IMG/VR virus record: IMGVR_UViG_3300020165_002390
Span: 1-55,674 of that record
DNA: 55,674 bases
Direction: 5' to 3' (one strand)
Source: a virus
Taxonomy: Duplodnaviria; Caudoviricetes
The notes under the pieces were generated by a model, which had not been told where the DNA came from, made no database searches, and saw only the letters and a list, made by a program, of their open reading frames with translations. A program made the translations under genes and the position numbers. Shown here piece by piece: positions 7,836 through 46,333 of this stretch (its first letter is position 1; each line of letters starts with the position of its first letter).

Positions 7836-8573
7836 ATGATAGACATCTTAAAAGACATCGTTAAACATACGCATGGACTGGGATTCTTGGATCTTGTTAA
7901 AATTACTGGCGACGACAAAGAGACTGCGATCGACAGTATGGCAGAAGACAGATCTGTGATCCTGCAAGGGTCTTTCCACAAACCACAAACGGAGATGACG
8001 GGTACGTTCGGTATGCCACAGATGGGCAAACTGGACATACACTTGAAGTGTCCGGAATACAAGGAGAAGGCAAACATAACTGTGTTGTCCGGTGAGAGAA
8101 ACGGTGCAACCATTCCAACAGGAATCCATTTCGAGAACGAAAAGGGTGACTTCAAGAATGACTACAGATTCATGAATGCCGAGATCATCAATGAGAAACT
8201 TAAGACCGTGAAGTTCAAAGGTGTTAAGTGGGACGTTGAGATCGAACCAAGTGTGGCAAGTGTGCAAAGATTCAACTTCCAGGCAACAGCAAACACAGAA
8301 CACAACTCATTCGTTGTGAGAACCGAGGATGGAAACTTGATTTTCACTTTTGGTGATCAGGCATCGCATGGTGGTGAATTCGTGTTCGCGACTGACGTTG
8401 AGGGAACACTCAACAAAGGTTGGAGTTGGCCGGTAGGACAGGTGCTACAAATACTTAAACTGTCTGATTCAGCGAAAGTTACATTACACTTCTCTAACGA
8501 GGGTGCTATGCAGGTTTCGGTTGATTCAGGACTGGGCAAGTATCAATACATCATACCAGCACAGGCGCAATAA
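7836..8573 (+). CDS. Putative DNA polymerase sliding clamp (gp45/PCNA-like)
   Basis: 245 aa, beta-rich two-domain pattern ending in YQYIIPA; close to the DNA polymerase. Confidence 0.65.
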   Translation: MIDILKDIVKHTHGLGFLDLVKITGDDKETAIDSMAEDRSVILQGSFHKPQTEMTGTFGMPQMGKLDIHLKCPEYKEKANITVLSGERNGATIPTGIHFENEKGDFKNDYRFMNAEIINEKLKTVKFKGVKWDVEIEPSVASVQRFNFQATANTEHNSFVVRTEDGNLIFTFGDQASHGGEFVFATDVEGTLNKGWSWPVGQVLQILKLSDSAKVTLHFSNEGAMQVSVDSGLGKYQYIIPAQAQ

Positions 8574-10021
8574 TGACGACAGATAATAGTAAGCAAGAAC
8601 ACTTAGGGGAGTTGAGCAGAGACTTCGCTGTGTTCTTGCCTGCTATATCAAACTTCTACAACACATTCATAAGCAAACAGAGAGTTTCAGAAGGCAAACA
8701 CATATCAGCAGAGAGAATACCACAAGGTTTTGAAAATGGTGTTGAAGGGTTGAACTTCATAAATCCTGAGAAGGGCATGTTCACCTATCCAACAGCACTG
8801 TACTCGGCGGGACACGCCTGCCTTGACATGGACAAGGTCGGTGACAGGGATCACATGTTCGTCAACAGAGATAGGAAGTTCAGCACAATAGTAGGTGACT
8901 CGGGCGGATACCAGATAGGAAAAGGTGTGATCAAGTTTGATTGGAAAGACTTCGAGGGTAACAAGGCAAACACTGTAAGAAGCAATATTTTAAATTGGCT
9001 AGAACTTACTAGCGATTGGGCCATGACACTAGACGTACCCACATGGGCGGCGGATGATCTAAACAGTCCAAAGACAGGACTTACAAGTTTCCAGGACACA
9101 CTGGATGGAACAATATACAACAACAAATTCTTTCAAAAGAATAGGCTAGGGCAAACAAAACTTTTAAATGTACTACAAGGCGATGACTGGAACACGGCAC
9201 AGATATGGTATGACGCTGTCAAAGACTTCGAATTCGAAGGATGGGCGATGGGTGGTATCAACATGTGTGATATGGAAGTCATGCTCAAACGTTTGATCAT
9301 AATGAGAGATGAGAAGAAACTGGATGGCAAGGATTGGATGCACGTACTAGGAACATCACAGATGGACTGGGGTTGTTATCTTACACAGGTACAGAGACAG
9401 GTAAGGAAACATATTAATTCCAACTTCACGATAAGTTTTGACAGTGCATCTGCATTTTTATCAACTGCTAATGGCCTAGTTTACACACATAACTCATTCA
9501 CCCCAGACAGATGGTCATTTGTGATGGACAAGGCTCCAGATGATAAAACACTGAAAGGATCTGACATACAGTTTCCATTTGATAGCGGAATAGGACGTAG
9601 ATTGAAGATGAAGGATGTTTGTTGGTATGGTGAGCAGGACGTCAACAAGAATGGCAAGATTGGTGCTACCAGTTGGGACAGTTTCAGTTATACTTTGATG
9701 ATGGCCCACAATGTATACAACCAAATCAGAGCGATACAGATCGCAAACGATCTCAATGACATAGAATCTAGAAAATACAGACCAGAAGTAAAACACTGGC
9801 GTAAGACCAAAGCAAGTGACAAGACTGATGAGCCAAGCATTTATGTTCCCAGGAACATACTGTACTTCAATACTTTGGTGGAAGAAGTGTTCACCAGCGA
9901 GAAGCCTATGGATGTGATCTCAAACGCATCAAGTTATCTAGCAGACATCAGAGGCAACAGATGGGCCAGGGCCACAGGCGGTGGTAAAGGCACAAACAAT
10001 TTCAGTTCTTTATTTGAATAG
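8573..10021 (+). CDS. dpdA: tRNA-guanine transglycosylase-fold protein, likely DNA 7-deazaguanine transglycosylase (DpdA family)
   Basis: TGT motifs GDSGGYQ, MTLD, NVLQG, GWAMGG, HVLG, SFDSAS and HN; no CxCxxC Zn motif; co-located with folE, queE, queD-like and yhhQ in a phage replication block. Confidence 0.8.
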   Translation: MTTDNSKQEHLGELSRDFAVFLPAISNFYNTFISKQRVSEGKHISAERIPQGFENGVEGLNFINPEKGMFTYPTALYSAGHACLDMDKVGDRDHMFVNRDRKFSTIVGDSGGYQIGKGVIKFDWKDFEGNKANTVRSNILNWLELTSDWAMTLDVPTWAADDLNSPKTGLTSFQDTLDGTIYNNKFFQKNRLGQTKLLNVLQGDDWNTAQIWYDAVKDFEFEGWAMGGINMCDMEVMLKRLIIMRDEKKLDGKDWMHVLGTSQMDWGCYLTQVQRQVRKHINSNFTISFDSASAFLSTANGLVYTHNSFTPDRWSFVMDKAPDDKTLKGSDIQFPFDSGIGRRLKMKDVCWYGEQDVNKNGKIGATSWDSFSYTLMMAHNVYNQIRAIQIANDLNDIESRKYRPEVKHWRKTKASDKTDEPSIYVPRNILYFNTLVEEVFTSEKPMDVISNASSYLADIRGNRWARATGGGKGTNNFSSLFE

Positions 10022-10030: not shown

Positions 10031-10234
10031 ATGAAGATAGCAAAGAGAAGAAGCAAAAAACTTAAGAAACTTGAGGAAGAACACACATACCTCGATAAGA
10101 AAGTAAAACAACTTACCAAAGACAGGCTCAAAGACAGAAGTACCGAGAGTAAGGATATTTTGTCAAGATTGAAGAGGACTAAATTAATGGTCAAAGATGC
10201 CATTGCAAAGGCAAAAGCCACGTTGACAAGTTGA
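10031..10234 (+). CDS. Small coiled-coil protein, YdcH/DUF465-like
   Basis: LEEEHTYLDKKV...LKRTKLMVKDAI pattern; GGAGG RBS. Confidence 0.6.
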   Translation: MKIAKRRSKKLKKLEEEHTYLDKKVKQLTKDRLKDRSTESKDILSRLKRTKLMVKDAIAKAKATLTS

Positions 10235-10251
10235 TCAAACCGTAATATAAT
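10223..10251 (+). promoter_or_regulatory. Perfect sigma70 consensus promoter TTGACA-N17-TATAAT
   Basis: TTGACA at 10223-10228 and TATAAT at 10246-10251; ATG at 10258, 6 nt after the -10 (leaderless geometry). Confidence 0.85.
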
Positions 10252-10257
10252 AATAAC

Positions 10258-10794
10258 ATGGACAGAGATTACAAAACAGGCAAGAGCGACAGTGTAGGCA
10301 TATTTTCAGGATTAGAGATAGAGCATACACCAGCATATGGATTACAGACGTTGTTCCTTGCGAGGAATGATCTACTGTTTGATCGGATAATAGAACTAGC
10401 AGAACAAGTGAATGCCAAGGCAATCTATTTTGGAGCAAACAGAAGTTTCATGCACAATATAGCCAACACATCACAATTAATCAAAAGATTAATGGACAGC
10501 GGTTATTGGTGCACAATAGACTACCAACACAGTGTACACGCAGAAGTCAAGGAGAGATTCAAGGATATTTGGAAGGAAGAAAAGTTTATACCATTCTGTT
10601 CTGTGATATTCCCTAATTCGGAGGATGACGATAATCTATGTATCAAAGTGGATGACGTAGACTTCGATGCAACAGGGCCTGGAGTATGGACAATGAGCAT
10701 GAACCATTTCAAACAGAGTGCAGGATTCACATCTTGGAACGAATACAAACAAGACGAACCATTAGAGGAGAAAGATGCCAAGAAAGTTGTCTAA
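10258..10794 (+). CDS. Hypothetical protein, possibly a degenerate QueE-like barrel without the Fe-S motif
   Basis: Motif order parallels the QueE at 21472 (see findings); no CxxxCxxC. Confidence 0.5.
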   Translation: MDRDYKTGKSDSVGIFSGLEIEHTPAYGLQTLFLARNDLLFDRIIELAEQVNAKAIYFGANRSFMHNIANTSQLIKRLMDSGYWCTIDYQHSVHAEVKERFKDIWKEEKFIPFCSVIFPNSEDDDNLCIKVDDVDFDATGPGVWTMSMNHFKQSAGFTSWNEYKQDEPLEEKDAKKVV

Positions 10795-10969
10795 AGAGGC
10801 TCTAGCATATAGAGAAGGTGTAAGAAGTTTCAATGCTTGGATGAAAGATAATAAAAAACTCGAGAAGATGGGATTGTATGGCACAGACTACTACGTGAGA
10901 AGGGTCGAAGAACTAGAAGCAAAAGTAAAAAGATTAGAAGCAAGACTAAAAACAAAGGGGAAAAAATGA
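10775..10969 (+). CDS. Small hypothetical protein (coiled coil)
   Basis: GAGGAG RBS; overlaps both neighbours. Confidence 0.55.
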   Translation: MPRKLSKEALAYREGVRSFNAWMKDNKKLEKMGLYGTDYYVRRVEELEAKVKRLEARLKTKGKK

Positions 10970-11406
10970 GTACTGAGGAAATGAGAGATCAAGCACTAAC
11001 AGAACAAGCCAACAGAGGCCATAAAATGATTTGGATTACTTTTAGAAAAGAAGGATTGCACAAATACCCAGCGGCATTGGATGATCCTAAACTAGCAACA
11101 GGTGATGAGTATGATGTGAGTTTCTTAGGATATGTACACAGACACATATTCCATTTCAAGGTAGCAATAGAAGTGACGCATGACGACAGAGATATAGAAT
11201 TCATACAGTTCAAGAGATGGATTGAGAACATGTATGCAGACGGCACAATGAAACTGGATTACAAATCGTGTGAGATGATGAGTGATGACTTGTACATGGC
11301 CATAACAAAGAAGTATCCAGGTAGAAAAATTGAAATAGACGTGAGTGAAGATGGCGAGAATGGAAGCCATGCAGTTTACGAAGTACCAGTGATGGGTGGA
11401 ATATAA
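10966..11406 (+). CDS. QueD-like / 6-pyruvoyl-tetrahydropterin synthase-like T-fold protein
   Basis: EGLH...HRH (three-His metal site), SCEM and VSED motifs matching the QueD layout. Confidence 0.65.
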   Translation: MSTEEMRDQALTEQANRGHKMIWITFRKEGLHKYPAALDDPKLATGDEYDVSFLGYVHRHIFHFKVAIEVTHDDRDIEFIQFKRWIENMYADGTMKLDYKSCEMMSDDLYMAITKKYPGRKIEIDVSEDGENGSHAVYEVPVMGGI

Positions 11407-12889: not shown

Positions 12890-14059
12890 ATGAAAATATT
12901 TTACATGGGACTAGAACCCTACGAAGGCAGATACACACTGCAATTACAAGACTGGACAGAACGTGCATACAAGAAAAGAGGTATAGAATACGTTGTTGTT
13001 CCGGGTACTACCATAGATGACACAAAAGCGATCAGTGTTGGACAGGTGCTTGACGCACACGGAAGATCATACTTTGGCATGAGTCAGATGATGAATCTTG
13101 TACAGATGATGCGTAATGGAGAAGTAACAAGTAAGGACATAGTATTCTTCGAAGACATGTTCCAGCCAGGCATGGAATCATTGCCCTACATACTACATCA
13201 AGTTGAAGACAAACACAGACCAACGATATATCTTAGATGCTTGGCACAGGCCATAGATCCAGATGACTTTGTACATGTATGGGGCATGAGCAAATGGATG
13301 AGCATGTATGAACAGATGTGTAATGAAATTCCTAATGTAAAAATACTCGCAACCAACGAAGAGATGGTGGCACACATGAAAATAGCAAATTGGTCAGCAC
13401 CCATATACAACATATCGGGCTTGAGTTTTGGCAAGGAAGAAGTGCAAAGCAGGGTTCCAGACAGGAAACCTTTCAATGAAAGAAAACAGAGAGTCATATT
13501 TGGAGCGAGATGGGATCAGGAGAAACAGCCACAGTTCTACATGACGCTGGCAATGAAATACAAAGATAAACACCCAGATGTGGAATTTGCAATATGCCAA
13601 GGTGGTCCTTTGAGATCAAACAACCAAATCTTCGTGGACGAGGCAAAGTATCTTGCAAAACAAGGCACAATAACCATACATGAGAACCTGAAGAAGAACG
13701 AGTACTACGAACTACTCGCAGACTCGAGGGTGATGTTCAACTGTGCTTTACAGGACTGGGTATCCAACACAGTGAGTGAAGCGGATGCAATGGGGTGTAA
13801 CACACTGTTTCCGGCATACAGATCATTCCCAGAGACATTCGCAAATGACCACACAAGAATGTATGTTCCATGGTCAGAGCAAGACGCAATGGAAAAACTA
13901 GAAGTATTATTAAGCAAACCATCCCCTAGTATAGGTAAATTATCTGATTGGACCGACGGTACCATAGACAGGATGATTGACATCATGACAGGCAAGGGAG
14001 AACAATGGAGAAGAGATGGAAGACACTACAGGACACCAGTTTCCGAAGCAAAATATTAA
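12890..14059 (+). CDS. GT-B (GT4-like) glycosyltransferase
   Basis: RWDQEKQP; NCALQDWVSNTVSEADAMG (EX7E-like donor motif); SFPE. Confidence 0.75.
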   Translation: MKIFYMGLEPYEGRYTLQLQDWTERAYKKRGIEYVVVPGTTIDDTKAISVGQVLDAHGRSYFGMSQMMNLVQMMRNGEVTSKDIVFFEDMFQPGMESLPYILHQVEDKHRPTIYLRCLAQAIDPDDFVHVWGMSKWMSMYEQMCNEIPNVKILATNEEMVAHMKIANWSAPIYNISGLSFGKEEVQSRVPDRKPFNERKQRVIFGARWDQEKQPQFYMTLAMKYKDKHPDVEFAICQGGPLRSNNQIFVDEAKYLAKQGTITIHENLKKNEYYELLADSRVMFNCALQDWVSNTVSEADAMGCNTLFPAYRSFPETFANDHTRMYVPWSEQDAMEKLEVLLSKPSPSIGKLSDWTDGTIDRMIDIMTGKGEQWRRDGRHYRTPVSEAKY

Positions 14060-15047
14060 CACACTGAGCAAGGCCGTGCTGGTCACGGGCGGAGCGGGTT
14101 ATGTGGGTTCACACACCTGCAAACTGTTGGCCAAGAATGGATTCACTCCAGTCACGATAGACAGGCATTACAGAGAGGGTCTGAAGTCGTTTGGCCCGAA
14201 CTACAATTTGAATCTCCCACAGGAGATGGACAGGGTTGACGAGATAGTCAACAGATACAACATAAGCAGTTGCATACACTTCGCGGGTAGCACCAGTGTA
14301 CCTGAGAGTGTTGCAAATCCTTCATTGTATTACAAAAACAATTTGATCATGACCATATCATTACTGGACAAACTTATCGAGTGTGGAGTCAAGACATTCG
14401 TTTACAGTTCAAGTGCGGCCACGTACGGTGATCCAGGAATGCAGTTGGCCATGGAGTCTGATGTTGCTGACCCGATCAGTGCATATGGAGGTAGTAAGTT
14501 AATGATAGAGATGGTGTGTAAAGATTATCTGAGAGCATACGGATTATCAAGTGTTGGATTGAGATACTTCAATGCCGCAGGAGCAGACCCAGAAGCAGAG
14601 GTAGGAGAGTTAAGGGAAAAAGAAACACACATCATACCACTGGCCATCGAGGCCGCGAAGCAGGGAAAAACATTTAAAATCTTTGGTGACAAGTATCCTA
14701 CCGATGACGGGACCTGTGTGAGAGATTACGTGCATGTGATGGACCTAGCAGACGCACACATAAAAGCATTGAATCACGCTTCGGAGAATCCAGTGGCGGA
14801 AGTGTTCAACCTAGGATCAGGGGAACCTGCTTCAAACAAGCAGTTGATAGAAGCGGTACAGAAACATGCAGGGGAGATGAACATAGAGATGCATGACAAC
14901 AGACCCGGAGATCCTGCATACCTTGTGGCAGACACCAGCAAGGTAAAGGAAATTTTAGAGTGGGAGCCCACACAGAGCAGTCTTGACAACGTGGTGGCAA
15001 CTGCTGTACAATGGTATAACAAGACACACAAGAAGGAGATACAATGA
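14016..15047 (+). CDS. galE: UDP-glucose 4-epimerase
   Basis: VTGGAGYVGSH, SSSAATYG, YGGSK, LRYFNAAGA, DGTCVRDYVHV, RPGDP. Confidence 0.92.
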   Translation: MEDTTGHQFPKQNINTLSKAVLVTGGAGYVGSHTCKLLAKNGFTPVTIDRHYREGLKSFGPNYNLNLPQEMDRVDEIVNRYNISSCIHFAGSTSVPESVANPSLYYKNNLIMTISLLDKLIECGVKTFVYSSSAATYGDPGMQLAMESDVADPISAYGGSKLMIEMVCKDYLRAYGLSSVGLRYFNAAGADPEAEVGELREKETHIIPLAIEAAKQGKTFKIFGDKYPTDDGTCVRDYVHVMDLADAHIKALNHASENPVAEVFNLGSGEPASNKQLIEAVQKHAGEMNIEMHDNRPGDPAYLVADTSKVKEILEWEPTQSSLDNVVATAVQWYNKTHKKEIQ

Positions 15048-15274
15048 CAGACTCAGATGAAAAACAAAGAGCACTAGACGCCTCAATGGAAAACGAGAGC
15101 CAGGAATCACAATCAGGTTATAGCCCAATGGTGCAGATATCTTTGAAGGAATATGACAAGTTGAAGGAGAGATCTAAATACATCACCGACAGGGATCTGA
15201 TCGGTTGCATTGACAAGATAGAAGAACTTGTAAGGGCATTAAGGAAACACATAGTCAGAGGAGATTTTGAATAG
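15044..15274 (+). CDS. Hypothetical protein
   Basis: AAGGAG RBS; ATGA overlap. Confidence 0.6.
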   Translation: MTDSDEKQRALDASMENESQESQSGYSPMVQISLKEYDKLKERSKYITDRDLIGCIDKIEELVRALRKHIVRGDFE

Positions 15275-15993
15275 TGGAAGATACATTAAAAGATAGTTGG
15301 GAACCCAAGGCTTCAACAAGCCAAGAGATTAGGAAACGTGTAGAGGAGGCTGGTGCACGAGCATGGGCCAACGACAATATCAGTGAATTCATTGAAGAAG
15401 GTGAGAAACAAAAACTTATAGACGAGGCCATACCGGCATTTGAAAATGTGTTACAAAGCCTCGTGATTGACACGAAGACTGATCCAAACAGCATGGACAC
15501 TGCAAGACGAATGGCCAAGATGTACATCAACGAGATCATGTCTGGTCGTTATGACGAAATGCCTAACCCTAGTGCATTTCCTAACTACATTGAAGGTGGA
15601 TATGAGGGCATGTTGGTCGTGAGGAGTGAACTTACGAGTTTGTGTTCACATCATCACCAAACGGTCAAGGGCGTGGCATACATTGGTATCATCGCAGGAC
15701 CTAAACTACTAGGACTGAGCAAGTACACAAGGATCGCTCAATGGTGTGCAAGACGTGGTACACTACAGGAAGATCTAAATGTGATGATTGCCAATCAGAT
15801 AGAACAAACAACTGGCAGTAAAGATGTCGGTGTGTATGTTCAGGCCACACACGGATGTTGTGAGAACAGAGGTATCAAGGCTCACAGCAGTTTGACACAG
15901 ACGACTGTGTTGCGTGGAGCATTCAAGAATGATAATGCCACTAAGAAAGAGTTCATGGACAACGTTAAACTACAACAACAGTTTGCGTGTTAA
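15274..15993 (+). CDS. folE: GTP cyclohydrolase I
   Basis: SLCSHH, GLSK, LQE, HGCCENRG; GTG start. Confidence 0.95.
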   Translation: MEDTLKDSWEPKASTSQEIRKRVEEAGARAWANDNISEFIEEGEKQKLIDEAIPAFENVLQSLVIDTKTDPNSMDTARRMAKMYINEIMSGRYDEMPNPSAFPNYIEGGYEGMLVVRSELTSLCSHHHQTVKGVAYIGIIAGPKLLGLSKYTRIAQWCARRGTLQEDLNVMIANQIEQTTGSKDVGVYVQATHGCCENRGIKAHSSLTQTTVLRGAFKNDNATKKEFMDNVKLQQQFAC

Positions 15994-15996: not shown

Positions 15997-16284
15997 ATGC
16001 CTAAGAAAAACATTACAAAAAAAGAGAAAAAAATTGTAGACGACCTGTGGGAATATACAAAACAGGCCAACATGAAATCGGACAACATAGAAATGGGTTC
16101 AGATGGAATACAGAACACTGGAGACTTCTCTTACAGTTTTAGAGACCTAGGTGACATGGGACAGTTGGATCTTTTTGACGAGATGGACATGAGGGACAAG
16201 TACCCAGCACTGAATCAAGCATGGGAACACTACCAGAGTGTGCTACAAGTCTGTAAAACTAAGGAAAAAGAAGATGCGGATTAA
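15997..16284 (+). CDS. Hypothetical protein
   Basis: 95-aa ORF with KYPALNQAWEHYQ; in operon context. Confidence 0.6.
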   Translation: MPKKNITKKEKKIVDDLWEYTKQANMKSDNIEMGSDGIQNTGDFSYSFRDLGDMGQLDLFDEMDMRDKYPALNQAWEHYQSVLQVCKTKEKEDAD

Positions 16285-17323
16285 CACAGAACCAAAACTT
16301 AATTTTGAGGACGTACTGCTTCAGCCAAAACGTTCTACACTGTCTAGCAGGAGAGATGTAGACATGACTCGTAAGTTCACGTTCCGTAACTCAGGCAAGG
16401 TGATGGATTTCCTTCCTATATTTGCAAGTAACATGGACGGTGTTGGTACATTCTCTATGGCAAGGGAAATGCAGAAGCACAAGATGATGACCGTTATCAC
16501 AAAAACTACCACACCAGAGCAATGGAAAGAGGCCGCAGGCACAGGATTGAGAATGCAATCGGTGTCAGTGTGTACAGGAACCAACGTGATGTGGGATCCG
16601 GAAGCACCTGATTGGGCGACCATGAATAGAGTTTTAGAAATGTTTCCAGATGTAAAGATGATCACTGTTGATGTAGCGAACGCATATCACCAGAACATGG
16701 TAGATTTCATAAAAAAGGTTAGAGATGAATATCCAGACAAGGTTATCATAGCAGGCAACGTAGTGACACCAGAGATGACAGAAGAGTTAATAATAAATGG
16801 TGCCGACGTGGTCAAAATAGGGATAGGGCCTGGATCGGTTTGCACTACAAGAACGATGACCGGTGTTGGTGTACCACAATTTTCGGCAATAGTGGATTGT
16901 TCAGATGCGGCAAACGGTGTTGGTGGACACATAATGGCTGACGGTGGTTGTGTGTATCCAGGAGATATAGCAAAAGCATTTGGTGGAGGAGCCCACATGG
17001 TCATGATTGGTGGCATGTTGGCAGGACATGATGAATCAGAACAGCCAGTAGTAGATGGCAAAGTAGAATTTTATGGAATGAGCTCGGACAGGGCTCGTGA
17101 GAAACACGGCAAACGCAAGGACGGATACCGAGGCAACGAAGGTCGACTGATATCCTTGCCCCACAGAGGACCTGTTGAAGGAACCTTGGAAGACATACTA
17201 GGCGGAGTAAGAAGTGCCTGCACATACATAGGTGCAAGAAGACTCAAAGACATGGCCAAGTGTGCTAGTTTCGTGACAACCAACAACGTGATCAACAGGG
17301 TCTATGAGCGATACACAAAATAG
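16274..17323 (+). CDS. guaC: GMP reductase
   Basis: DVLLQPKRSTL, ASNMD, DVANAY, KIGIGPGSVCTTR, ADGGC, FYGMSS; start moved to ATG 16274. Confidence 0.93.
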   Translation: MRINTEPKLNFEDVLLQPKRSTLSSRRDVDMTRKFTFRNSGKVMDFLPIFASNMDGVGTFSMAREMQKHKMMTVITKTTTPEQWKEAAGTGLRMQSVSVCTGTNVMWDPEAPDWATMNRVLEMFPDVKMITVDVANAYHQNMVDFIKKVRDEYPDKVIIAGNVVTPEMTEELIINGADVVKIGIGPGSVCTTRTMTGVGVPQFSAIVDCSDAANGVGGHIMADGGCVYPGDIAKAFGGGAHMVMIGGMLAGHDESEQPVVDGKVEFYGMSSDRAREKHGKRKDGYRGNEGRLISLPHRGPVEGTLEDILGGVRSACTYIGARRLKDMAKCASFVTTNNVINRVYERYTK

Positions 17324-17639
17324 AATAGAAGATCTAGAACAAAAAATTGAGACACTCGAAGATCAATTGACCAGTGTTCGCAAGGTCACACCATTGCACG
17401 ATATCACTTGGTATGTTAAATGGGTATCTGTGTTCTTTGTGTGTTGTGCGGTGCTTTGCAGATCAATTGAAGAAGTACCAAAGATATATGATGTGTTCTT
17501 TTCAATAATTGGAACAGCAGGCTGGCTTTGGGTGGGATTCAAATGGCATGACCGGGCACTTATAGTTTTAAATACGATACTACTGGCGATGTTGGTATCA
17601 GGAGGAGCGAGGTATATTGTACAATGGCTGATGATGTAA
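17304..17639 (+). CDS. Small membrane protein (DUF6552-like)
   Basis: WYVKW...GWLWVG..WHDRALIVLN; about 3 TM. Confidence 0.55.
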   Translation: MSDTQNRIEDLEQKIETLEDQLTSVRKVTPLHDITWYVKWVSVFFVCCAVLCRSIEEVPKIYDVFFSIIGTAGWLWVGFKWHDRALIVLNTILLAMLVSGGARYIVQWLMM

Positions 17640-18088
17640 AGAAGAACTATTTCACAACAGGACAGATGCGTAACGCATTAATACAGATCGAGGACAAGAT
17701 GGTCCATAGCAACTGGATGCCAAACATCATACTGGGAATAAACAGAGGTGGTTGCATACCCGGTGTGTACCTTTCGCACAGGTTAAAAACAGCACACGAA
17801 GTGCTAGATGTGAGATTGAGAGATCACACTGCCAAGCCTAACCTAACCGTGTTGGAGAAAGCATTCGCATTCCAAAAGAAGATACTGATCATAGACGACA
17901 TAAATGATTCCGGGGCAACATTCCAGTACATACTTGACCACTTCGGAAAGCGTGAGGACAGGATCAAATTCGCGGCCTTGATAAACAACAAACCTTCAAA
18001 AGTAAAAGTAGATTACCATGGATACGAGATCAACAAGGACGAAGTGCCCAGTTGGATAGTATTCCCATGGGAAGAATGGGACAAGTGA
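17624..18088 (+). CDS. Purine phosphoribosyltransferase (Gpt-like type I PRTase)
   Basis: GINRGG, PRPP loop LIIDDINDSGAT and WIVFPWE. Confidence 0.88.
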   Translation: MADDVKKNYFTTGQMRNALIQIEDKMVHSNWMPNIILGINRGGCIPGVYLSHRLKTAHEVLDVRLRDHTAKPNLTVLEKAFAFQKKILIIDDINDSGATFQYILDHFGKREDRIKFAALINNKPSKVKVDYHGYEINKDEVPSWIVFPWEEWDK

Positions 18089-18921: not shown

Positions 18922-19524
18922 ATGTTCAAAAACGTAGACAAATCAATGCTGTTGAAATTAGTGGCACTTCACGTGATAGTGATCACTGTTTCAAATGCGT
19001 TAGTGGCTATACCGGTAGAGATATTCGGTGTGAAATTGACGTGGGCGGCATTCACATTCCCATTAGTAGTAATAGCAACTGACTTGACTGTCAGGCTACT
19101 GGGTAAAACAATAGCAAGACAAACAATCGCGGCGGCTTATCCATTAGCAATAATTGGATCCATTGCAGTTGTCTTGGCAGAAGGAGCACCGGGATCGGTC
19201 GCAGTAAGAATTGGTTTCGCAAGTGCCACTGCTTATGCAATTGGTACAATGCTTGACGTGTATGTATTCCAATACATCAGAGAAGGGTTCAAGAACAATT
19301 GGTGGTTGGCACCAGCGGTATCAACTATCGCGGCTAACATCATTGACACTTACACTTTCTTTGCTGTTGCATTCAACAACAGTGCAGACGAGTACATGGC
19401 GGCAAACTGGATGGAGATCGCAGGATCTCAAGTTGTAATTAAAATTGCAGTCGGCTTGTTAGTATTCCTACCAGCATATGGTATTTTACTGAACAGACTA
19501 CAAAAAAGTTACAAACTGAAATAG
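18922..19524 (+). CDS. yhhQ: Queuosine precursor (preQ0/preQ1) transporter, YhhQ/VUT family
   Basis: SN...TWAAFTFP..ATDLTVRLLG..ARQ, RIGFAS..AY, LDVYVF, DTYTFF; multiple TM segments. Confidence 0.9.
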   Translation: MFKNVDKSMLLKLVALHVIVITVSNALVAIPVEIFGVKLTWAAFTFPLVVIATDLTVRLLGKTIARQTIAAAYPLAIIGSIAVVLAEGAPGSVAVRIGFASATAYAIGTMLDVYVFQYIREGFKNNWWLAPAVSTIAANIIDTYTFFAVAFNNSADEYMAANWMEIAGSQVVIKIAVGLLVFLPAYGILLNRLQKSYKLK

Positions 19525-19611: not shown

Positions 19612-19639
19612 TCAATGGGGGATTTATTTCCCCCATTGA
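19612..19639. terminator. Perfect 11-bp inverted repeat (possible terminator or operator)
   Basis: TCAATGGGGGA-TTTATT-TCCCCCATTGA; no U-tract; the right arm overlaps the next -35 box. Confidence 0.5.
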
Positions 19640-19664
19640 CAAAACATCTAAATACATTTATAAT
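19636..19664 (+). promoter_or_regulatory. Perfect sigma70 consensus promoter TTGACA-N17-TATAAT
   Basis: TTGACA at 19636-19641 and TATAAT at 19659-19664; ATG at 19674 with no SD. Confidence 0.85.
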
Positions 19665-21066: not shown

Positions 21067-21487
21067 CATATATACTATATACGCAGACCACAAAAAAAAT
21101 ATTACAGCACATGATTTTGTTGCCAAAATGAGTCTGTTCCTTGATAAACTTGTTGAACACAACAAGATGATTACGTACAGAATCACGAGAATGAAACTAG
21201 GTTTTAGATCAATGGACATGCCTGAGTTCAGGATAGACATGGAGTTTGTAAACATGCAGGCACTCGACGACGCCATGACAATAACCATAGCAGACAAGGA
21301 TGTTGACAAAGTACACGTAGGTTTCAACCAATATGTGGATGTTGAAACTATACAACATTTCCTTTACCGAGATTTCCCAGACGACCTAAATAAACCAAAG
21401 TTGACAGAAAAGCAAGAACAGTTTACAATGGATGATATAGTCAAGGCAACAAAAGATATAGATCCGGACCTATGGAAAAAGAAATAG
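21059..21487 (+). CDS. DUF6614-like protein (dimeric alpha+beta barrel-like)
   Basis: YRITRMKLGFRS..PEFRIDMEF..MQALD and LYRDFPD; likely TTG start at 21059 rather than 20888. Confidence 0.55.
   Translation: MANIYTIYADHKKNITAHDFVAKMSLFLDKLVEHNKMITYRITRMKLGFRSMDMPEFRIDMEFVNMQALDDAMTITIADKDVDKVHVGFNQYVDVETIQHFLYRDFPDDLNKPKLTEKQEQFTMDDIVKATKDIDPDLWKKK
21401..21429 (+). promoter_or_regulatory. Sigma70-type promoter TTGACA-N17-TACAAT upstream of queE (inside the previous CDS)
   Basis: TTGACA at 21401-21406 and TACAAT at 21424-21429. Confidence 0.65.
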
Positions 21488-22377
21488 AAAAAAAATATTA
21501 CTATTCAGAGATATTTCACAGCATACAAGGTGAAGGACACTACACGGGTGTGCCCACTGCATGGATAAGATTCTTCTTGTGCAATTTACAGTGTAGCGGA
21601 TTCGGACAAGTGGATCCAACCAATCCGGACACGTATGATCTACCGTTTGAAGACTTTGACGTCGACAGTGTAAAGAGGGTTGAAGATTTACCCGTGTGGG
21701 AGAAAGGTTGTGATTCCAGTTACACATGGGCAAAGAAGTTCAAGAAATTGATGGGACACGAGACTCCTACTGTGATGGCGGACAAGATCGTAGACATACT
21801 CAAGACTGACACAAACGCAAATGGATTGTTCCTACATCCAAACTCACGACAACACCAACACCTGTGTTTCACAGGCGGAGAACCACTGATGATTACAGGG
21901 CAGGCCGCCAGCATGGGCATATACAAGGCATTGGAAAAGAGAGCAAACTTGCCAAGTTCAATGACATATGAAACAAACGGCACACAAAAACTTACTGAAC
22001 CATTCAAACAGTGGGTAAAAAATATTCCGGAAGAGATATTCTTTAGTGTGAGTCCCAAACTATTCACAGTGTCAGGGGAGAAGACAGAGAAGGCAATCAA
22101 ACCTGAGAACGTAGCAGAATATAAGGAGTGTTCGGACAGAGGACAACTGAAATTTGTTGTGGGAGATGAAAGACGACAATGGGAAGAACTAGAAAACACA
22201 GTGAGAAAATTCAGAGAGGCTGGTGTAGATTGGCCAGTATGGATAATGCCTGTAGGAGCAAGAGAAGAAGAACAAACAGCAGGTGCTGGTAAAGTGGCAG
22301 AAGAGGCATTCAAAAGAGGGTACAACGTGGCGGCCAGAGTACACGTATACCTGTTCGGTAATGCAATAGGCACATAG
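21472..22377 (+). CDS. queE: 7-carboxy-7-deazaguanine synthase (radical SAM)
   Basis: EIFHSIQGEG..TG, CNLQC-X38-CDS, FTGGEP, ETNG, SVSPK, LKFVV, RVHVYLFGN. Confidence 0.9.
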   Translation: MEKEIEKKYYYSEIFHSIQGEGHYTGVPTAWIRFFLCNLQCSGFGQVDPTNPDTYDLPFEDFDVDSVKRVEDLPVWEKGCDSSYTWAKKFKKLMGHETPTVMADKIVDILKTDTNANGLFLHPNSRQHQHLCFTGGEPLMITGQAASMGIYKALEKRANLPSSMTYETNGTQKLTEPFKQWVKNIPEEIFFSVSPKLFTVSGEKTEKAIKPENVAEYKECSDRGQLKFVVGDERRQWEELENTVRKFREAGVDWPVWIMPVGAREEEQTAGAGKVAEEAFKRGYNVAARVHVYLFGNAIGT

Positions 22378-22455: not shown

Positions 22456-23892
22456 ATGGAACTTGTTATATTATTGGCAGGTATTGTGTACGGCTTGATC
22501 ATTGGCCTAATACCAGCCGCGGGAGCAACGACAGGACTAATCACACTATTTGGATTCATGCCCTACTTTGTGGGCGACCCCTACCTGGGTGTGATCTTTT
22601 GTGTGGCAGTCGTGGCATCCTCAACAACCGGTGATTCTTTCAGTGGTGTGCTATTAGGCATACCCGGGGCCAACTCTGCGGCGGCAACAATGGTTGACGG
22701 ATTCCCAATGGCCAAGAACGGTGAGGCGACACGGGCATTGAGTGCCGCGATAACATCAAGCACAGCGAATGGTTTGTTCTTTGGATCACTTACATTTTTA
22801 TTCTTGCCATGGTACACCAAGGTTGTCATGTACATGGGCATACCAGAGTTATGGGCATTGGTACTACTAGCATTTGTGACTGTGGGCTTTGTATCCACTA
22901 GGAAATATTTCAGGAGTGCGTTGGCGATAGCATTAGGAGTCACCATAGGTCTGGTAGGAGTTGATGTAAACAACGTTCCACGTTTCACAATGGGTTGGAG
23001 ATATTTAGAAGATGGTATACAAATACTGCCTTATGTTGCAGGACTGTTCGCAATACCAGAACTTTGGAATGGATGGTTCAACAGAAAGAAGACTACAACA
23101 ATCAAAGCAGAACACGGCAGTTGGCAAGATCTAAAACAAGGTGTAAAAGATACTATTAGATGTTGGAAGGATAGCATCAGGGGAGGAGCCATAGGTTCTT
23201 TCATAGGACTGCTACCTGGACTGGGTGGTGCAATGGCAGACTGGTTAGCATACGGTGCCACGGTGGCGGCCAATCCCAAAGAGAAGTTTGGTGTGGGCAA
23301 CGTCAAAGGCGTGATAGGTGCCGAAGGTGCCAACAACGCACAGAAGGCCGCATCGTTTATTCCAACTGTGCTGTTTGGAATCCCAGGTGCAAGTTTCGCC
23401 GCGATACTGATGGGACTATTTTTATACCTGGGCATTGACCTAGGTTCACCTGATACATTTTACGACGACAGATTATTTGACAGCATGACATTTGCTTTTT
23501 TAATAGGAACAATCATAACTGCTGTCATCTGTTATGGACTGGCATATTTCGCGGGGTGGGTTACAAGAGTACCATATGTGTATTACTTTCCTTTCATACT
23601 TGCTGTGATAGTTTGGGCGACCTTGCAATACACAGGCGGGTGGGAAGACCTTGCAGTGCTATTAGTGTTCTCAATCATGGGACTACTATGTAAAAAATTC
23701 CAAGTGAGCAGGCCAGCACTGCTTATTGGATATCTATTAAGTGATCGAATATATAGCCTCACTTATCAACTAACAACACTCCACACGGTAAATGATTTAG
23801 TCACGAGACCGATCTTTATTTGCATAATGATCTGTGTTATACTTTTACTGTATTGGGGATTAACAAAACGGAGTAAACTAGACTATGCTTAA
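22456..23892 (+). CDS. tctA: Tripartite tricarboxylate transporter large permease (TctA family)
   Basis: GLIPAAG, LLGIPG...DGFPMAKNG, GLLPGLGG, EGANNA, FGIPG; about 12 TM. Confidence 0.9.
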   Translation: MELVILLAGIVYGLIIGLIPAAGATTGLITLFGFMPYFVGDPYLGVIFCVAVVASSTTGDSFSGVLLGIPGANSAAATMVDGFPMAKNGEATRALSAAITSSTANGLFFGSLTFLFLPWYTKVVMYMGIPELWALVLLAFVTVGFVSTRKYFRSALAIALGVTIGLVGVDVNNVPRFTMGWRYLEDGIQILPYVAGLFAIPELWNGWFNRKKTTTIKAEHGSWQDLKQGVKDTIRCWKDSIRGGAIGSFIGLLPGLGGAMADWLAYGATVAANPKEKFGVGNVKGVIGAEGANNAQKAASFIPTVLFGIPGASFAAILMGLFLYLGIDLGSPDTFYDDRLFDSMTFAFLIGTIITAVICYGLAYFAGWVTRVPYVYYFPFILAVIVWATLQYTGGWEDLAVLLVFSIMGLLCKKFQVSRPALLIGYLLSDRIYSLTYQLTTLHTVNDLVTRPIFICIMICVILLLYWGLTKRSKLDYA

Positions 23893-24931
23893 GAAAACAA
23901 TAATGGCCTTGTTCTTAATAACAACAACAGCATTGGCAGATTACAATTTAATCGTGCCACAAAAACCATCTGGTGGAACTTCTGTGTGGGCACAGATAGT
24001 TGTAGCAGAATGGGAGAAACACCTAGGTGAGAAGATTAACTTGATATACAAGCCAGGTGCAAGAGATCAACTGGGGCCAAACGAGTTCCAAAATGAACTT
24101 AGATTCAACAACAAGACTATACTTGTATCACATGGCGGTAACGGTATATCATATCTTACTGAGCCAGTTGATTACAACTACTTTGACTGGGAATCAGTGG
24201 GACACATGAATCTCAACATCATTGTTGGTGCGAGGAATAAAGCAGACACCACAAATGGCCCAATACAGTTTCCGTCAGGATCTGGAATGACCCCAGAGAT
24301 TATGGCAATCGTTATGTTGCTTACAGGTCCCAACGGTGATCCAATCAAAACATTTGAAGACAAGATCATTTGGGTAAAAGGAATGAAAGGCTCAGAGAGA
24401 AGACTTGCATTCATCAGAGGTGACTTGAACGCAACCAGGGAGAACCCTGCCGCATACAAGAAACACGTTATGCCAGTAATAGGCAAAGGTGACGCATACA
24501 CTTGGTTCCATCATGGACTACTAAATGTTAACACAGGTGATCATGATGAAGATCCTAACTTCACAGAACCAACGTTTGAAGCACTGTATGAATCTACATA
24601 TGGCGTTGCACCAAGTGGTGACTTCTATGATGCATACAAACTTGTAAAGAGTTGGAGAGATGCATTACAGAAAGCATTCTGGGTGAACGCAGGCAATCCA
24701 AACAAACAAAAACTTGTCGACGCTTTAGACAAGATGATCAAGGATCCTGAGTCGGTGGCCGCCATCGAAAAGAAAGTGGGCAAGTACGAGTGGAGAACAG
24801 GTGAGGAAGGTGATGCCGCAGTGAGAACACTGAAGTCATTCATCACACCTGGTGCATTGAAAACACTATCTGATTTTGGAAAGAATCAATTGGGCTACAA
24901 TGCCATCTACAAGGAAGAGTTGACCAAGTAG
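23885..24931 (+). CDS. TctC/Bug-like periplasmic substrate-binding protein
   Basis: Signal peptide; LIVPQKPSGGT and YKPGA; directly after tctA. Confidence 0.75.
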   Translation: MLKKTIMALFLITTTALADYNLIVPQKPSGGTSVWAQIVVAEWEKHLGEKINLIYKPGARDQLGPNEFQNELRFNNKTILVSHGGNGISYLTEPVDYNYFDWESVGHMNLNIIVGARNKADTTNGPIQFPSGSGMTPEIMAIVMLLTGPNGDPIKTFEDKIIWVKGMKGSERRLAFIRGDLNATRENPAAYKKHVMPVIGKGDAYTWFHHGLLNVNTGDHDEDPNFTEPTFEALYESTYGVAPSGDFYDAYKLVKSWRDALQKAFWVNAGNPNKQKLVDALDKMIKDPESVAAIEKKVGKYEWRTGEEGDAAVRTLKSFITPGALKTLSDFGKNQLGYNAIYKEELTK

Positions 24932-38088: not shown

Positions 38089-38404
38089 GACTTGGGTACA
38101 ACTGACGCAAGATTTCGTCAAGGAATGGCCGGAGGTTCTAGAGGGATTACATCTCAGGAACATGCCGGTCAAGTACCTGATGTACATAGACCTTTTACTC
38201 AAGAACAACATCACCATACACTACGACATAGCCAAGGAATTAAAATCCAAGAAACAGGAAACCATCGCTAGGTATCTGAGGAAAACGATAGAGGATAACT
38301 ACGTCAAGATAAAGAGCGTGGACATGAAGTTTGACATACCGGCATTGAAGCGTGACATGGAATCTCGAACTTCGTTAATAATGGCTAAGACTTTTAAGAA
38401 ATAG
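38060..38404 (+). CDS. Hypothetical protein
   Basis: EWPEVL...MPVKYL; last gene of the plus-strand block, overlapping the convergent gene. Confidence 0.6.
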   Translation: MPKRQPPKNKTWVQLTQDFVKEWPEVLEGLHLRNMPVKYLMYIDLLLKNNITIHYDIAKELKSKKQETIARYLRKTIEDNYVKIKSVDMKFDIPALKRDMESRTSLIMAKTFKK

Positions 38405-39689
38405 AATTGAACTTATTTTTTAACCATTCCAATTCATAAGACAACTGTAAAGCGTTTTTATCGCCTTTAACTTCATCGAAATATTGTACGGCGTCGAGAG
38501 CACCTTTATGTACATATGATGCATATTTGCCTACACCCAACTCACACCATTTTTTCAGCCTGTGCCGAGATTCTACTGTGGGTTTCATTTCACACAACTT
38601 GAGCACTTCTCTAAATGCCACACGCCAACTGATCTCTGGTGTTTGATTAAAATAACTTGTTCCACACAACTGTGGAACTACTGTGTGTGGTTGCGACAGC
38701 GTGAAATCTAAACTAGGATGAATTGTTGATAGGCATAGGTGTTTATTGTACAATATCACTGCCCTGTGTCCATACGACAGTCCATTCACAGGATTTTTAG
38801 CATGGAAGATGTAATGACAGGCTTCTCGTAGCCTATCAGGTTGGAAAGTGAAGTCAAAAGTAGGATCCAAATCTATTGTAGGGAACACTGCAAAGAAATA
38901 GGCCGTCTCACTCATAACGGCCGCGGCGTGGTATGCCTGTGTTCTTCCCTTAACCCCTTGTATGCGTTTTGCCCTTGGATATGCATCCTTGAGTGCCTTC
39001 CAATATTTGTCCGCACTGGGCTCGTCATAGGACAGGAAAACTATATCCATCGGCCTACGTGCATAATCTAAATTGAAGTGTACCTGTCTATCTATGTCAT
39101 AGAACTGGTTTATATCCTTGTCTCCAGGAACCAACATTATGTCCTTGGTTTCGCCCCATGTGTAAATCTTCTCATCCTCCCAAAAACTAGGATAAAAATC
39201 AGGAACAGGTTCGTCCTCTAGATCTTTATTGATCATCCATGTGTACAAAGTCTTTTGTTTTTTGTAGGCATCAACAGGATCTTTCAATTTGAAAATAGTT
39301 TTTGTAATTGGTCTTTGAAACAAAGTTTCGTGTTCATGGTAATTGATATCTTTGAAATCTCTGAGGAATCTTATAGAGTGCATCTGTTTTTTGAATTCCA
39401 TGGTAGGTATCAGCATCACGTTTCCCTCCTTGTTAAGTCCTCCCTGCGGATGTGTGGTATACCAAACGTGTATCTGGTCTCGTTCGTGCTGTTCGGGAAT
39501 GAAATCTAAGTCGATATCTTGCATATCAACAAAGTTACTAAAGAACCAAAAATATTCTGTTTTTATATCATTGATAACAGATTTAAGAACTGTGAGATAA
39601 CTCTCAACAAACGGCACTATCCTTGTGTTTGCAAAGGGCGATAGTATGTGCTTTGTTTGTTTGAATCTAACTTGCACACTATCGAACAT
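38394..39689 (-). CDS. Glycosyltransferase-like protein (GT-A-like C-terminal domain)
   Basis: DIVFLSYDEP, GVKG..AYHAAA, NPVNGLSYG, WRVAFRE; homologous to 53592-54494 but lacks its VDGD. Confidence 0.55.
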   Translation of the reverse strand: MFDSVQVRFKQTKHILSPFANTRIVPFVESYLTVLKSVINDIKTEYFWFFSNFVDMQDIDLDFIPEQHERDQIHVWYTTHPQGGLNKEGNVMLIPTMEFKKQMHSIRFLRDFKDINYHEHETLFQRPITKTIFKLKDPVDAYKKQKTLYTWMINKDLEDEPVPDFYPSFWEDEKIYTWGETKDIMLVPGDKDINQFYDIDRQVHFNLDYARRPMDIVFLSYDEPSADKYWKALKDAYPRAKRIQGVKGRTQAYHAAAVMSETAYFFAVFPTIDLDPTFDFTFQPDRLREACHYIFHAKNPVNGLSYGHRAVILYNKHLCLSTIHPSLDFTLSQPHTVVPQLCGTSYFNQTPEISWRVAFREVLKLCEMKPTVESRHRLKKWCELGVGKYASYVHKGALDAVQYFDEVKGDKNALQLSYELEWLKNKFNSIS

Positions 39690-40740
39690 GTATAAATTCC
39701 TTTATTCTATCACAAATGTAATCAACTTCCTTTATTTTCAAATGTGGATATATAGGCAAACTCAACGCCATAGCACAAACCTTTTCAGCATTGGGGTATT
39801 GTCCGATATTCATACTGTCTAATGTCTTAGGATAATGTATTTTAGTCTCTATACCGTTTTGTGCAAGAAATGTTTTCAAGTCATCTCGCCTATCGGATAG
39901 AATGACTAACTTGTGATGACTGGATTTTGCGTTGTCTTGCGATTCTATGATAAGACTATCTGGTAATAGTTTTTTATATCGTTTGAATACCTTCTCCCTC
40001 TTCTTCTGCAGTTTATTAAATTTGCTTAACAACAACAGTAATTGGTTTGCATGATCTTCGGATATTAAACTGTTGTACCCATATGGCAAATTGCTGTTCT
40101 GTCCGTGCCTACGTAACGATATCACTGTGTCGTACACATCCTTGCTGTCGGTCAGCACCATACCACCTGCGCCAAAACTAGGCATGTTCTTCATAGGATC
40201 AAAACTGAAAACGCTGACATCTCCTAGAGCACCTGACGGAGTCTTGCCGTGCATCGCTCCCTGTGATTGTGCGGCGTCTTCTATCAATGGTATCTTGTGA
40301 TTATCACAGTATTTTCTTATCCTGGTGTAGTCGGCCGGATTCCCAAACATGTTGACATAGAGAATTGCATTTGGTAGGCCCATTATGCCCCAGTCACCTA
40401 TGTTTCCATTCTCATCCGTGTCAACAAATCGTATGTCTGCACCCAGACGTTTTATCGCACCCGCGGTTGCCACGTAACTAAATGCTGGACACAGTACCGT
40501 ACTACTTTTGTTTAGACCAACTGCCTTCATGGCGAAGTACAGTCCGTCTGTGGCACTGCCCACACCTATGGCATATTTCCGTTTGTATTTTTTTGCAATT
40601 TCTGTTTCCAATTGGTTGAGGTACTTGCCTTGTAGGACGTCTCCAGACTCCCATACTGCTTTGGCTCTTCTTGAAAGTCTCCAACTGTAATCCTTGTAGA
40701 GCCTGTCAACACCATTAAATTTAATTTTGTAGCCAGTCAT
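39679..40740 (-). CDS. DegT/DnrJ/EryC1/StrS PLP-dependent sugar aminotransferase
   Basis: SATDGL, IEDAAQS, SFDPMKN (PLP Lys), IHYP, LSLPIYP. Confidence 0.92.
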   Translation of the reverse strand: MTGYKIKFNGVDRLYKDYSWRLSRRAKAVWESGDVLQGKYLNQLETEIAKKYKRKYAIGVGSATDGLYFAMKAVGLNKSSTVLCPAFSYVATAGAIKRLGADIRFVDTDENGNIGDWGIMGLPNAILYVNMFGNPADYTRIRKYCDNHKIPLIEDAAQSQGAMHGKTPSGALGDVSVFSFDPMKNMPSFGAGGMVLTDSKDVYDTVISLRRHGQNSNLPYGYNSLISEDHANQLLLLLSKFNKLQKKREKVFKRYKKLLPDSLIIESQDNAKSSHHKLVILSDRRDDLKTFLAQNGIETKIHYPKTLDSMNIGQYPNAEKVCAMALSLPIYPHLKIKEVDYICDRIKEFIHVR

Positions 40741-41665: not shown

Positions 41666-41666
41666 A

Positions 41667-42764: not shown

Positions 42765-43260
42765 AAAAATAAATCTCCGGTATGTATAATTTATGTTCTA
42801 AAACAAATCTTACTATACTGACCACGTCGCTTGTGGTCATTTTTTTTCTGCTTTGATTTGCTGTTAATTTTGTATCAGTAACTCCTGGATTAATAAGATA
42901 TGATTTGCATTTGGTTGTTTTCAAATTTACAATATCACAGTGTGCTTTCCTTAAATCTCTTTTGTAATCAACATAGTCTTGATAATTCGAACCTGTAGGC
43001 ATATATGAAGATACTGAACTACCAATTGATATTATTTTCTTTGATTCATCTTTCCATTTGGTAAAGAAAAAATTAAGCAGTTTAGTTTGGCAATCGTTGT
43101 GCCATGCATTGTTTATGAATACTTTGCAATCTTTTAGTTTATTATATACCACTTCTGGGTCATTTATATCTCCATGTGCTCTATCAAATATTACAAAGTT
43201 GTAGGGCATATCCAGTAATGCTTTTCCTATTCCAGAAGTAGTTCCTGTTATACCTATCAT
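42754..43260 (-). CDS. Short-chain dehydrogenase/reductase (compact)
   Basis: ITGTTSGIG, FINNA, YVDYK, INPG. Confidence 0.8.
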   Translation of the reverse strand: MIGITGTTSGIGKALLDMPYNFVIFDRAHGDINDPEVVYNKLKDCKVFINNAWHNDCQTKLLNFFFTKWKDESKKIISIGSSVSSYMPTGSNYQDYVDYKRDLRKAHCDIVNLKTTKCKSYLINPGVTDTKLTANQSRKKMTTSDVVSIVRFVLEHKLYIPEIYFYVE

Positions 43261-46227: not shown

Positions 46228-46228
46228 T

Positions 46229-46333
46229 TTACTTGTATATGAATGGGTCTTTCTTTTTCAGCTCTTTGAGTCTTTTCCTGTACTTCAGTTCTTGTTTGAT
46301 CTTGTCGATCATTTTACGTATCCATGTTAACAT
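46229..46333 (-). CDS. 34-aa basic peptide ending KKKDPFIYK, not in the ORF track
   Basis: MLTWIRKMIDKIKQELKYRKRLKELKKKDPFIYK; AGGAG RBS; TAATG coupling to the upstream gene. Confidence 0.65.
   Translation of the reverse strand: MLTWIRKMIDKIKQELKYRKRLKELKKKDPFIYK

Follow-up and report, generated by a model that had tools for sequence, protein, structure and literature searches.

The open reading frame at 10258 to 10794 is a real, well conserved gene of an unnamed phage protein family. This family tracks one variant of a 7-deazaguanine DNA-modification module, the variant that bears a glycosyltransferase (GT), with either class of the transglycosylase DpdA (DpdA3 or DpdA2). The product (hereafter the target) is predicted with confidence to fold as a small beta/alpha partial barrel, and, judged on defining features, it falls outside the radical SAM family. 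In the reading preferred here, which falls just short of probable, the target serves a non-radical step on a deazapurine or pterin intermediate that is specific to the GT-bearing module. The fold analysis, the comparison with QueE, and the promoter of the target are new here.

Gene and neighbourhood

The window, meaning the whole stretch of DNA that was analysed, is an entire IMG/VR record of 55,674 bases with an estimated completeness of 16%, so gene absences inside it carry little weight. The features used below are listed by position.

8573 to 10021, plus strand: DpdA3-type DNA transglycosylase, 482 aa (40.6% identity over 522 columns to PA5oct gp168, E 1.5e-129)
10031 to 10234, plus strand: small DUF465 gene (PF04325, E 9.4e-06), kept in most marine relatives
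10223 to 10251, plus strand: sigma-70-type promoter, TTGACA-17-TATAAT, matching the consensus at 12 of 12 positions
10258 to 10794, plus strand: target gene, 178 aa, from the ATG at 10258 to the stop codon ending at 10794
10775 to 10969, plus strand: 64-aa ORF rich in Lys and Glu, overlapping the 3' end of the target by 20 nt and present only in part of the close relatives
10966 to 11406, plus strand: DpdL, with the motif LGYVHRHIF (phrog_17812, E 1.5e-33; no PF01242 match in the record)
12890 to 14059, plus strand: GT of the GT-B type (weak Glycos_transf_1 match, E 2.9e-05, under the curated cut-off)
14016 to 15047, plus strand: UDP-glucose 4-epimerase, GalE (TIGR01179, 332 bits against a cut-off of 262)
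15274 to 15993, plus strand: GTP cyclohydrolase I, FolE (PF01227, E 2.6e-38)
17624 to 18088, plus strand: phosphoribosyltransferase (PF00156, E 6.9e-14), whose homologue PA5oct gp163 adjoins QueE in that phage
18922 to 19524, plus strand: YhhQ/Vut_1-type transporter of queuosine precursors (PF02592, E 1.7e-24)
21472 to 22377, plus strand: QueE (CDG synthase) of a divergent phage type, 301 aa (phrog_2076, E 1.6e-53), with a long insert after the cluster loop

A longer start for the target is ruled out by an in-frame TAA at 10243 to 10245. The product of 8573 to 10021 has no Pfam or NCBIfam match of its own; PA5oct gp168 (by gene order QCG76197) is given as DpdA3 in table DS1 of PMC10516641. The initial annotation had placed the target between dpdA and a QueD-like gene, and that position holds, with the downstream neighbour renamed: the gene at 10966 to 11406 is DpdL and not QueD, because it carries LxxxHRHxF. 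DpdL is described as a QueD paralogue and proposed CDG decarboxylase, a QueD-like T-fold protein in which this signature replaces the CxxxHGH of QueD (PMC10516641). No variation was seen at L54, H58, H60, or F62 among 47 DpdL sequences, and very little at R59.

The gene at 21472 had been called the true QueE, and the match to phrog_2076 bears this out. NCBIfam QueE models align with its residues 9 to 42 only, at scores under their cut-offs. In this protein and its close relatives, C37, C41, and C80 are invariant and the usual third Cys at +3 is absent (CNLQCSGFG...GCDS), so the position of the third cluster ligand may be shifted, by about 38 residues; the alignment also contains ACP17-type phage QueEs, and these retain CxxxCxxC. 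Neither QueC nor a canonical QueD was detected in the window record.

Several other genes of the window are recorded here as observations. A GMP-reductase-family enzyme (16238 to 17323) and the phosphoribosyltransferase (17624 to 18088) lie within the deazapurine gene set. The same pair of activities occurs in the pathways of the deazapurine nucleosides toyocamycin and tubercidin, and nucleotide-level chemistry by this pair is a possibility. A TctA tricarboxylate transporter subunit is followed, within 22456 to 24931, by a 348-aa protein with a signal-peptide-like N-terminus, which may be the matching binding protein. A long minus-strand block at 38394 to 53605 includes genes for five radical SAM proteins (SPASM domains in two), together with a carbamoyltransferase, a DegT-type aminotransferase, an NAD-dependent epimerase/dehydratase, and a thioredoxin-reductase-like flavoprotein; it looks like a separate sugar- or peptide-modification cluster.

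Family and conservation

No Pfam, PHROG, or NCBIfam family was matched by the target. The 108 members of its family alignment gave no recurring Pfam match (the commonest family occurred in 4 of the 108) and no Pfam or NCBIfam match to QueE or radical SAM enzymes. Matches to the target at E <= 0.001 numbered 404, nearly all of 172 to 185 aa and from marine metagenomes, and an exhaustive search of cluster representatives at 50% identity gave 467 at E <= 0.001, 245 of them at E <= 1e-10. An artefactual reading of the ORF is ruled out by conservation over these 467 clusters. Residues conserved in at least 90% of the 108 diverse members are F16, G18, E20, E22, T31, L32, F33, G59, A60, N61, D88, K130, D132, D133, N140, G142, V143, W144, T158, W160, Y163, and D166; H23, part of the EIEH motif highlighted in the initial annotation, lies outside this family-wide set. 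No relatives were found in contigs of cellular genomes, a weak negative obtained with one search pattern only. A single sequence (P0131) gave no match when searched against viral contigs; a search with an alignment did recover loci.

Relatives of 250 to 352 aa (n=25) were considered as possible fusions to DpdL and rejected as such: the extra part is a low-complexity tail in which no DpdL or QueD family was found. Pfam left 23 of the 25 without any match, the other two being a T4 portal match, probably a chimeric call, and a weak deaminase match (E 0.0062). In one branch of the family (P0131, P0132, P0169, P0198, and P0226; loci L101 to L133), the low-complexity C-terminal tail measures 80 to 170 residues and has a conserved LGLDP...LKPE stretch and a Lys-rich end, and the GT lies directly upstream of the target homologue.

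Co-occurrence with the deazaguanine module

Two scans of viral contigs returned 393 and 335 loci encoding relatives of the target; the best 80 of each were kept, resulting in 159 loci, some of which share a contig. Neighbouring genes were searched for by tblastn with several divergent queries per gene, and only loci with enough flanking sequence were counted. Over all loci, DpdL lay within 2.5 kb downstream in 130 of 132 and was directly adjacent in 101 of 132, DpdA lay upstream in 128 of 128, and the GT was found between -2.5 and +5.5 kb in 108 of 109. With one locus taken per 95% cluster (100 clusters), the corresponding counts were 81/83, 63/83, 87/87, and 71/72; per 70% cluster (25 clusters), 18/20, 14/20, 24/24, and 18/19; and per 50% cluster (5 clusters), 5/5, 4/5, 5/5, and 4/5. 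At the two DpdL exceptions, DpdL lies at +3.4 to +3.7 kb, and one locus has no GT match. Co-occurrence with deazaguanine genes, one of the checks proposed in the initial annotation, is very strongly supported by these counts. The gene order polB, clamp, DpdA, target, DpdL is common to nearly all loci. The whole block belongs to a conserved replication module (polB, clamp), so inheritance of gene order could account for part of the co-location.

Cultured phages

Among 50,697 phage records, 13 hold a homologue of the target, namely 11 records of PA5oct-like jumbo phages and 2 of Acidovorax phage ACP17. A profile search of 12 DpdL-bearing phage genomes left 10 without the target family at E <= 1, including Cellulophaga phage phiST; only the two positive controls matched. 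A homologue of the GT was found near DpdL in ACP17, PA5oct, Phosso, BUDD, BCSR5, and BUCT-ZZ01; within 6 kb none was found in phiST, RHph_I1_18, Ahp1, Bakedbeans, D479, or MA9V-3.

Directly upstream of the GT in two of these phages lie ORFs of 143 aa (BUDD) and 155 aa (BCSR5) that overlap its start by 4 and 11 nt. The two ORFs are homologous to each other and, as judged by hhalign to target residues 17 to 91 (E 6.8e-4, probability 27%, and E 4.4e-5, probability 69%), appear to be remote homologues of the target. Two genes upstream of the target-like ORF, both phages encode a PAPS-reductase-like protein (L092 1897 to 2388 and L095 7267 to 7911). Such proteins belong to the PP-loop ATPase group that includes QueC, and this one could be a stand-in for the missing QueC. 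In Sinorhizobium phage Phosso, a 177-aa "glycosylase" (L090 5379 to 5909) lies between clamp and DpdL, the slot of DpdA and the target in the window. It was rejected as a target homologue (hhalign probability 1%) and matches phrog_11575 and, weakly, 8-oxoguanine glycosylase (E 0.025); a search within 6 kb gave no DpdA homologue. A 174-aa ORF of BUCT-ZZ01 was likewise discarded as a counterpart, being exonuclease-like instead.

Promoter

The initial annotation had credited the target with its own perfect sigma-70 promoter, and the site at 10223 to 10251 confirms it and recurs in relatives. Perfect TTGACA-N17-TATAAT sites occur twice in the window against 0.11 expected; the second, at 19636 to 19664, lies 9 nt upstream of a cupin gene starting at 19674. 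The -35 box of the target promoter is inside the 3' end of the upstream DUF465 gene, and the -10 box ends 6 nt before the target ATG. Of 116 distinct regions upstream of relatives, 44 have a perfect 12/12 promoter, with varying spacer and flanks, against a background of 3 in 2000 random 70-nt windows. These 44 regions are in essence the marine branch of the family. The distance from the -10 box to the ATG was 5 to 6 nt in 42 perfect regions among 45 regions inspected, a gap too short for a Shine-Dalgarno sequence, and the mRNA would have no leader or almost none. The promoter sequence also suggests that the target is transcribed early by the host RNA polymerase.

Contigs from four metatranscriptome runs of one study cover 97 to 98% of the window at flat depth, a pattern for which DNA carry-over is a possible source. 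All four runs have a contig break at 10256 to 10258. With about 30 nt of overlap and a loose end that is a variant, this break was read as strain branching in the assembly graph and was dismissed as a transcript start.

Sequence comparison with QueE

According to the initial annotation, the target follows the motif order of QueE. One part of this stood: all seven motif pairs fall on equivalent strands (beta1' and beta1 to beta6) of the two AF2 models described below. The other part did not, as sequence similarity is not above chance. BLASTP of the target against QueE gave only a 14-residue match, out of register (E 0.034), and semi-global alignment gave z = 0.21, with 194 of 500 shuffles scoring as high. 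Comparison by hhalign of the 108-sequence target family with a 17-sequence QueE family, which included phage QueEs only 23 to 40% identical to the window QueE, gave a probability of 0.2 to 0.3% in default, local, and global modes; this profile check went against the proposed relationship, and the best local alignment paired target 5 to 100 with QueE 199 to 301, out of register.

Tests restricted to strands gave a more favourable picture. Five of the seven motif pairs, which were chosen by eye, rank in the top 0.03 to 0.11% of all ungapped profile window pairs, and for three of them no other stretch of QueE matches as well as the equivalent strand. A free-chain test was marginal (52.0 against a null of 42.5, sd 4.9, with a maximum of 53.7 in 30 shuffles), and the motif chain of the initial annotation itself scored 22.2 and is not the best chain. 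In a strand-permutation test with windows anchored on DSSP strand ends, which controls for generic strand composition, the true order ranked 10, 87, 20, 165, and 1 of 5040 in the five window settings tried, these being all that were run.

On beta1', target F16-x-G18-x-E20-x-E22 aligns at a register shift of 0 with QueE F15-x-S17-x-Q19-G20-E21, a window pair that ranks 1 of 293 along QueE. The family-invariant target residues F16, E20, and E22 correspond to F15, Q19, and E21 of QueE, whose N-terminal QGEG strand has a role in substrate binding. At the end of beta2, the nearly invariant G59-A60-N61 of the target family stands against the invariant G135-G136-E137 of QueE, the GGE motif that binds SAM. 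The lack of the Fe-S cysteine loop, also noted initially, extends to the whole family: a cluster motif of the CxxxCxxC type or a spaced one was found in 0 of 269 members, and in the loop after beta1 there is no Cys in 100 of 108 aligned members and no conserved Cys. With no cluster loop and with G-A-N in place of GGE, the target cannot do radical SAM chemistry or cleave SAM.

Predicted fold

The AF2 model of the target, made from a deep alignment, has a pLDDT of 92.5 and a pTM of 0.87; that of the window QueE has a pLDDT of 87. Target strands are beta1' at 15 to 19, beta1 at 30 to 34, and beta2 to beta6 at 55 to 58, 84 to 90, 110 to 115, 128 to 131, and 144 to 147, with helices only after beta1, beta2, and beta3. 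In QueE, beta1' is at 13 to 18 and beta1 at 28 to 34, followed by the long insert and by beta2 to beta6 at 130 to 135, 163 to 168, 188 to 193, 224 to 230, and 256 to 260, with a helix after each. The two independent models thus share the same secondary-structure order, beta1' and then six parallel strands, and differ in that the target has no helices after strands 4 and 5.

When the target model was compared with 48,161 chains, the solved QueE structures 6nhl, 5tgs, and 4njg ranked 4, 7, and 14, with 119 to 125 residues aligned, and about 11 radical SAM enzymes (QueE and eight others, read from entry titles) were in the top 50, along with GH5 enzymes and other TIM barrels. QueE took ranks 1 and 2 in a second structure comparison against 999 chains. 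These ranks carry some weight because the QueE hypothesis was fixed before the structure search. Foldseek against the PDB gave no match at E <= 0.001 and no QueE among the matches listed, and PDB sequence searches with the target gave a best E of 0.94 (single sequence) and 0.5 (profile). The sole significant match in a viral structure library was the homologue from ACP17 itself; below significance, a putative QueE ranked 7 (E 0.19) and a radical SAM protein ranked 11.

STAS, metallo-beta-lactamase, and Mre11/SbcD-type chains scored about as high as QueE, over shorter spans; the STAS or anti-sigma-factor antagonist domain (four-strand alpha/beta, about 110 aa) was compared because of fold matches. 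A calcineurin-like metallophosphoesterase of the Mre11/SbcD type was rejected, as the conserved His/Asp metal-binding motifs of that family (DxH, GD, and GNH[DE]) do not occur in the target. The conserved polar residues of the target lie where successive parallel strands end on their C-terminal side, the location of the active site in barrel enzymes; this placement favours an enzyme or ligand-binding subunit over a structural protein. A complex prediction of the target with DpdL scored 0.00, a value that counts neither for nor against binding.

Structure prediction and fold comparison with QueE, the other check suggested initially, did not show a fold unrelated to that of QueE. The target is probably a cluster-less partial barrel of the radical SAM or QueE type. 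The initial claim of a radical-SAM-derived barrel is plausible in view of the QueE ranks, and the odds that the target descends from QueE or from a different radical SAM enzyme are about even.

Possible role

The target would be an early-expressed, phage-specific protein and a constant component of one version of the 7-deazaguanine DNA-modification module, a version made up of the DpdA transglycosylase, the target, DpdL, and the GT-B glycosyltransferase and fed by FolE and QueE with no QueC. Most likely it would bind a pathway intermediate of the deazapurine or pterin type, for example CDG, through the retained N-terminal F-x-G-x-E-x-E strand and the strand-end polar residues N61, D88, K130, D132, and D133. 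It would then do or assist a non-radical step between the QueE product and the base that ends up in DNA, and this step would exist only in modules that also carry the glycosyltransferase. QueE ancestry, ligand binding, and catalysis are all inferred, and the target is a good candidate for a missing pathway step. The initial suggestion of an unrecognised step gains from the co-occurrence and loses its generality to the 10 of 12 DpdL phages that have no member of the family. A more specific version is rather improbable as a whole: a cluster-less QueE paralogue acting as a non-radical enzyme on the QueE-made 7-deazapurine, giving together with the GT an undescribed DNA base, possibly a sugar-bearing deazaguanine, and being the "other unknown enzyme" of the failed ACP17 reconstitution.

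The target could also be a pathway component that does not derive from QueE, a generic small alpha/beta protein that partners the GT, for instance to hold the acceptor base or the DNA or to handle the sugar donor, its QueE likeness being the common likeness of parallel beta/alpha proteins. This is a tentative alternative, less likely than the preferred reading. The family is confined to places with a GT (108 of 109 loci and the cultured phages), the start of the GT falls inside its remote homologue in BUDD and in BCSR5, and in one branch the GT is directly upstream, at -1.1 to -2.2 kb. The negative hhalign result, the match of 1 of 108 family members to DUF4434, and the ESM Atlas feature matches to glycoside-hydrolase-like TIM barrels (scores 0.85 to 0.91, of lead level only) point the same way. 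It sits less well with the structure searches, in which QueE gave the longest aligned span and a high rank among both 48,161 and 999 chains, with the strand-permutation test, which favours the QueE order, and with Phosso and BUCT-ZZ01, which have the GT without the target family.

A role apart from deazaguanine chemistry, as a DNA-binding or anti-defence accessory of the replication module kept beside DpdA and DpdL by the inherited gene order of T4-like and jumbo phages, is unlikely. It would explain why the order polB, clamp, DpdA, target, DpdL recurs in nearly all loci, which are not independent events on that account, and the 159 loci do collapse to 5 clusters at 50% identity; the 27 kb between the PA5oct gene and the dpd genes, the subfamily with long low-complexity tails and a Lys-rich end, and the 10 of 12 DpdL phages without the family also fit. 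Yet the target was never met without DpdA and DpdL in the loci examined and the 13 phage records, in ACP17 it is part of an operon with a different gene order, BUDD and BCSR5, with a DpdA of another class, have its remote homologue next to the GT, and its conserved polar strand-end residues suggest an enzyme. Least likely, and very doubtful, is that the true CDG decarboxylase is the target, or includes it as an obligate subunit alongside DpdL. The QueE pocket holds a carboxylated substrate with Mg2+, which was counted in favour of this, as was the direct adjacency of DpdL in 101 of 132 loci. The failure of the published reconstitution with dpdL and dpdA (PMC10516641) would agree, but dDG is made in phiST, which has no member of the target family, and 9 more DpdL phages would do the same.

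In research on phage-host conflict, 7-deazaguanine DNA modifications of phages are a topic of present interest, and reconstitution of the DpdL branch is yet to be achieved. The preferred reading, a GT-linked non-radical step, names a candidate from a family never met without DpdA and DpdL, and it is directly testable because the carriers PA5oct and ACP17 are already cultured. If QueE ancestry is true, the target would clearly exemplify a radical SAM scaffold put to new use in the absence of its cluster. With a conserved perfect promoter 5 to 6 nt from its start codon, the gene is a candidate leaderless early phage gene.

Comparison with known systems

No paper describing the target protein family was found, a weak negative since the family has no name to search by. 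Table DS1 of PMC10516641 gives no assignment to the GT or the target homologue, either in ACP17, where the two genes are interleaved with the module, or in PA5oct. In ACP17 the target homologue is, by gene order, YP_009609722 and the GT is YP_009609724; the PA5oct copy of the target is gp121. In the same source, expression of ACP17 dpdL with dpdA only gave no dDG, and its authors suggest that other unknown enzymes may be needed. The homologues of the target in ACP17 and Pseudomonas phage PA5oct are 31% and 40% identical to it, and both phages share DpdA, GT, DpdL, QueE, and FolE with the window module. The order in ACP17 is QueD, a small ORF, FolE, target, DpdA2, GT, DpdL, QueE, differing from the window in arrangement and in the DpdA2 class, and the row from the target to QueE is tight, with several 4-nt overlaps. 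PA5oct has a row of DpdA3, GT, DpdL, an epimerase-like gene, the phosphoribosyltransferase, and QueE, with FolE elsewhere; unlike in the window, 27 kb separate the target copy of the PA5oct-like phages from the dpd cluster. According to a preprint (PMC12191111), PA5oct DNA is resistant to several restriction enzymes, and the pattern points to a modified G.

Compared with the window QueE, the target is shorter (178 against 301 aa), and the two have the pathway context in common. The system of phiST, in whose DNA dDG was measured (PMC10516641), shares with that of the window a DpdA, FolE, QueE, and a DpdL bearing LxxxHRHxF, and the record holds no QueC. Because phiST has dDG without the target family, the target is dispensable for plain dDG. 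The DpdA of the window has 482 aa against 259 aa in phiST, and where phiST is without the target family and without the GT, the window module adds both, plus GalE.
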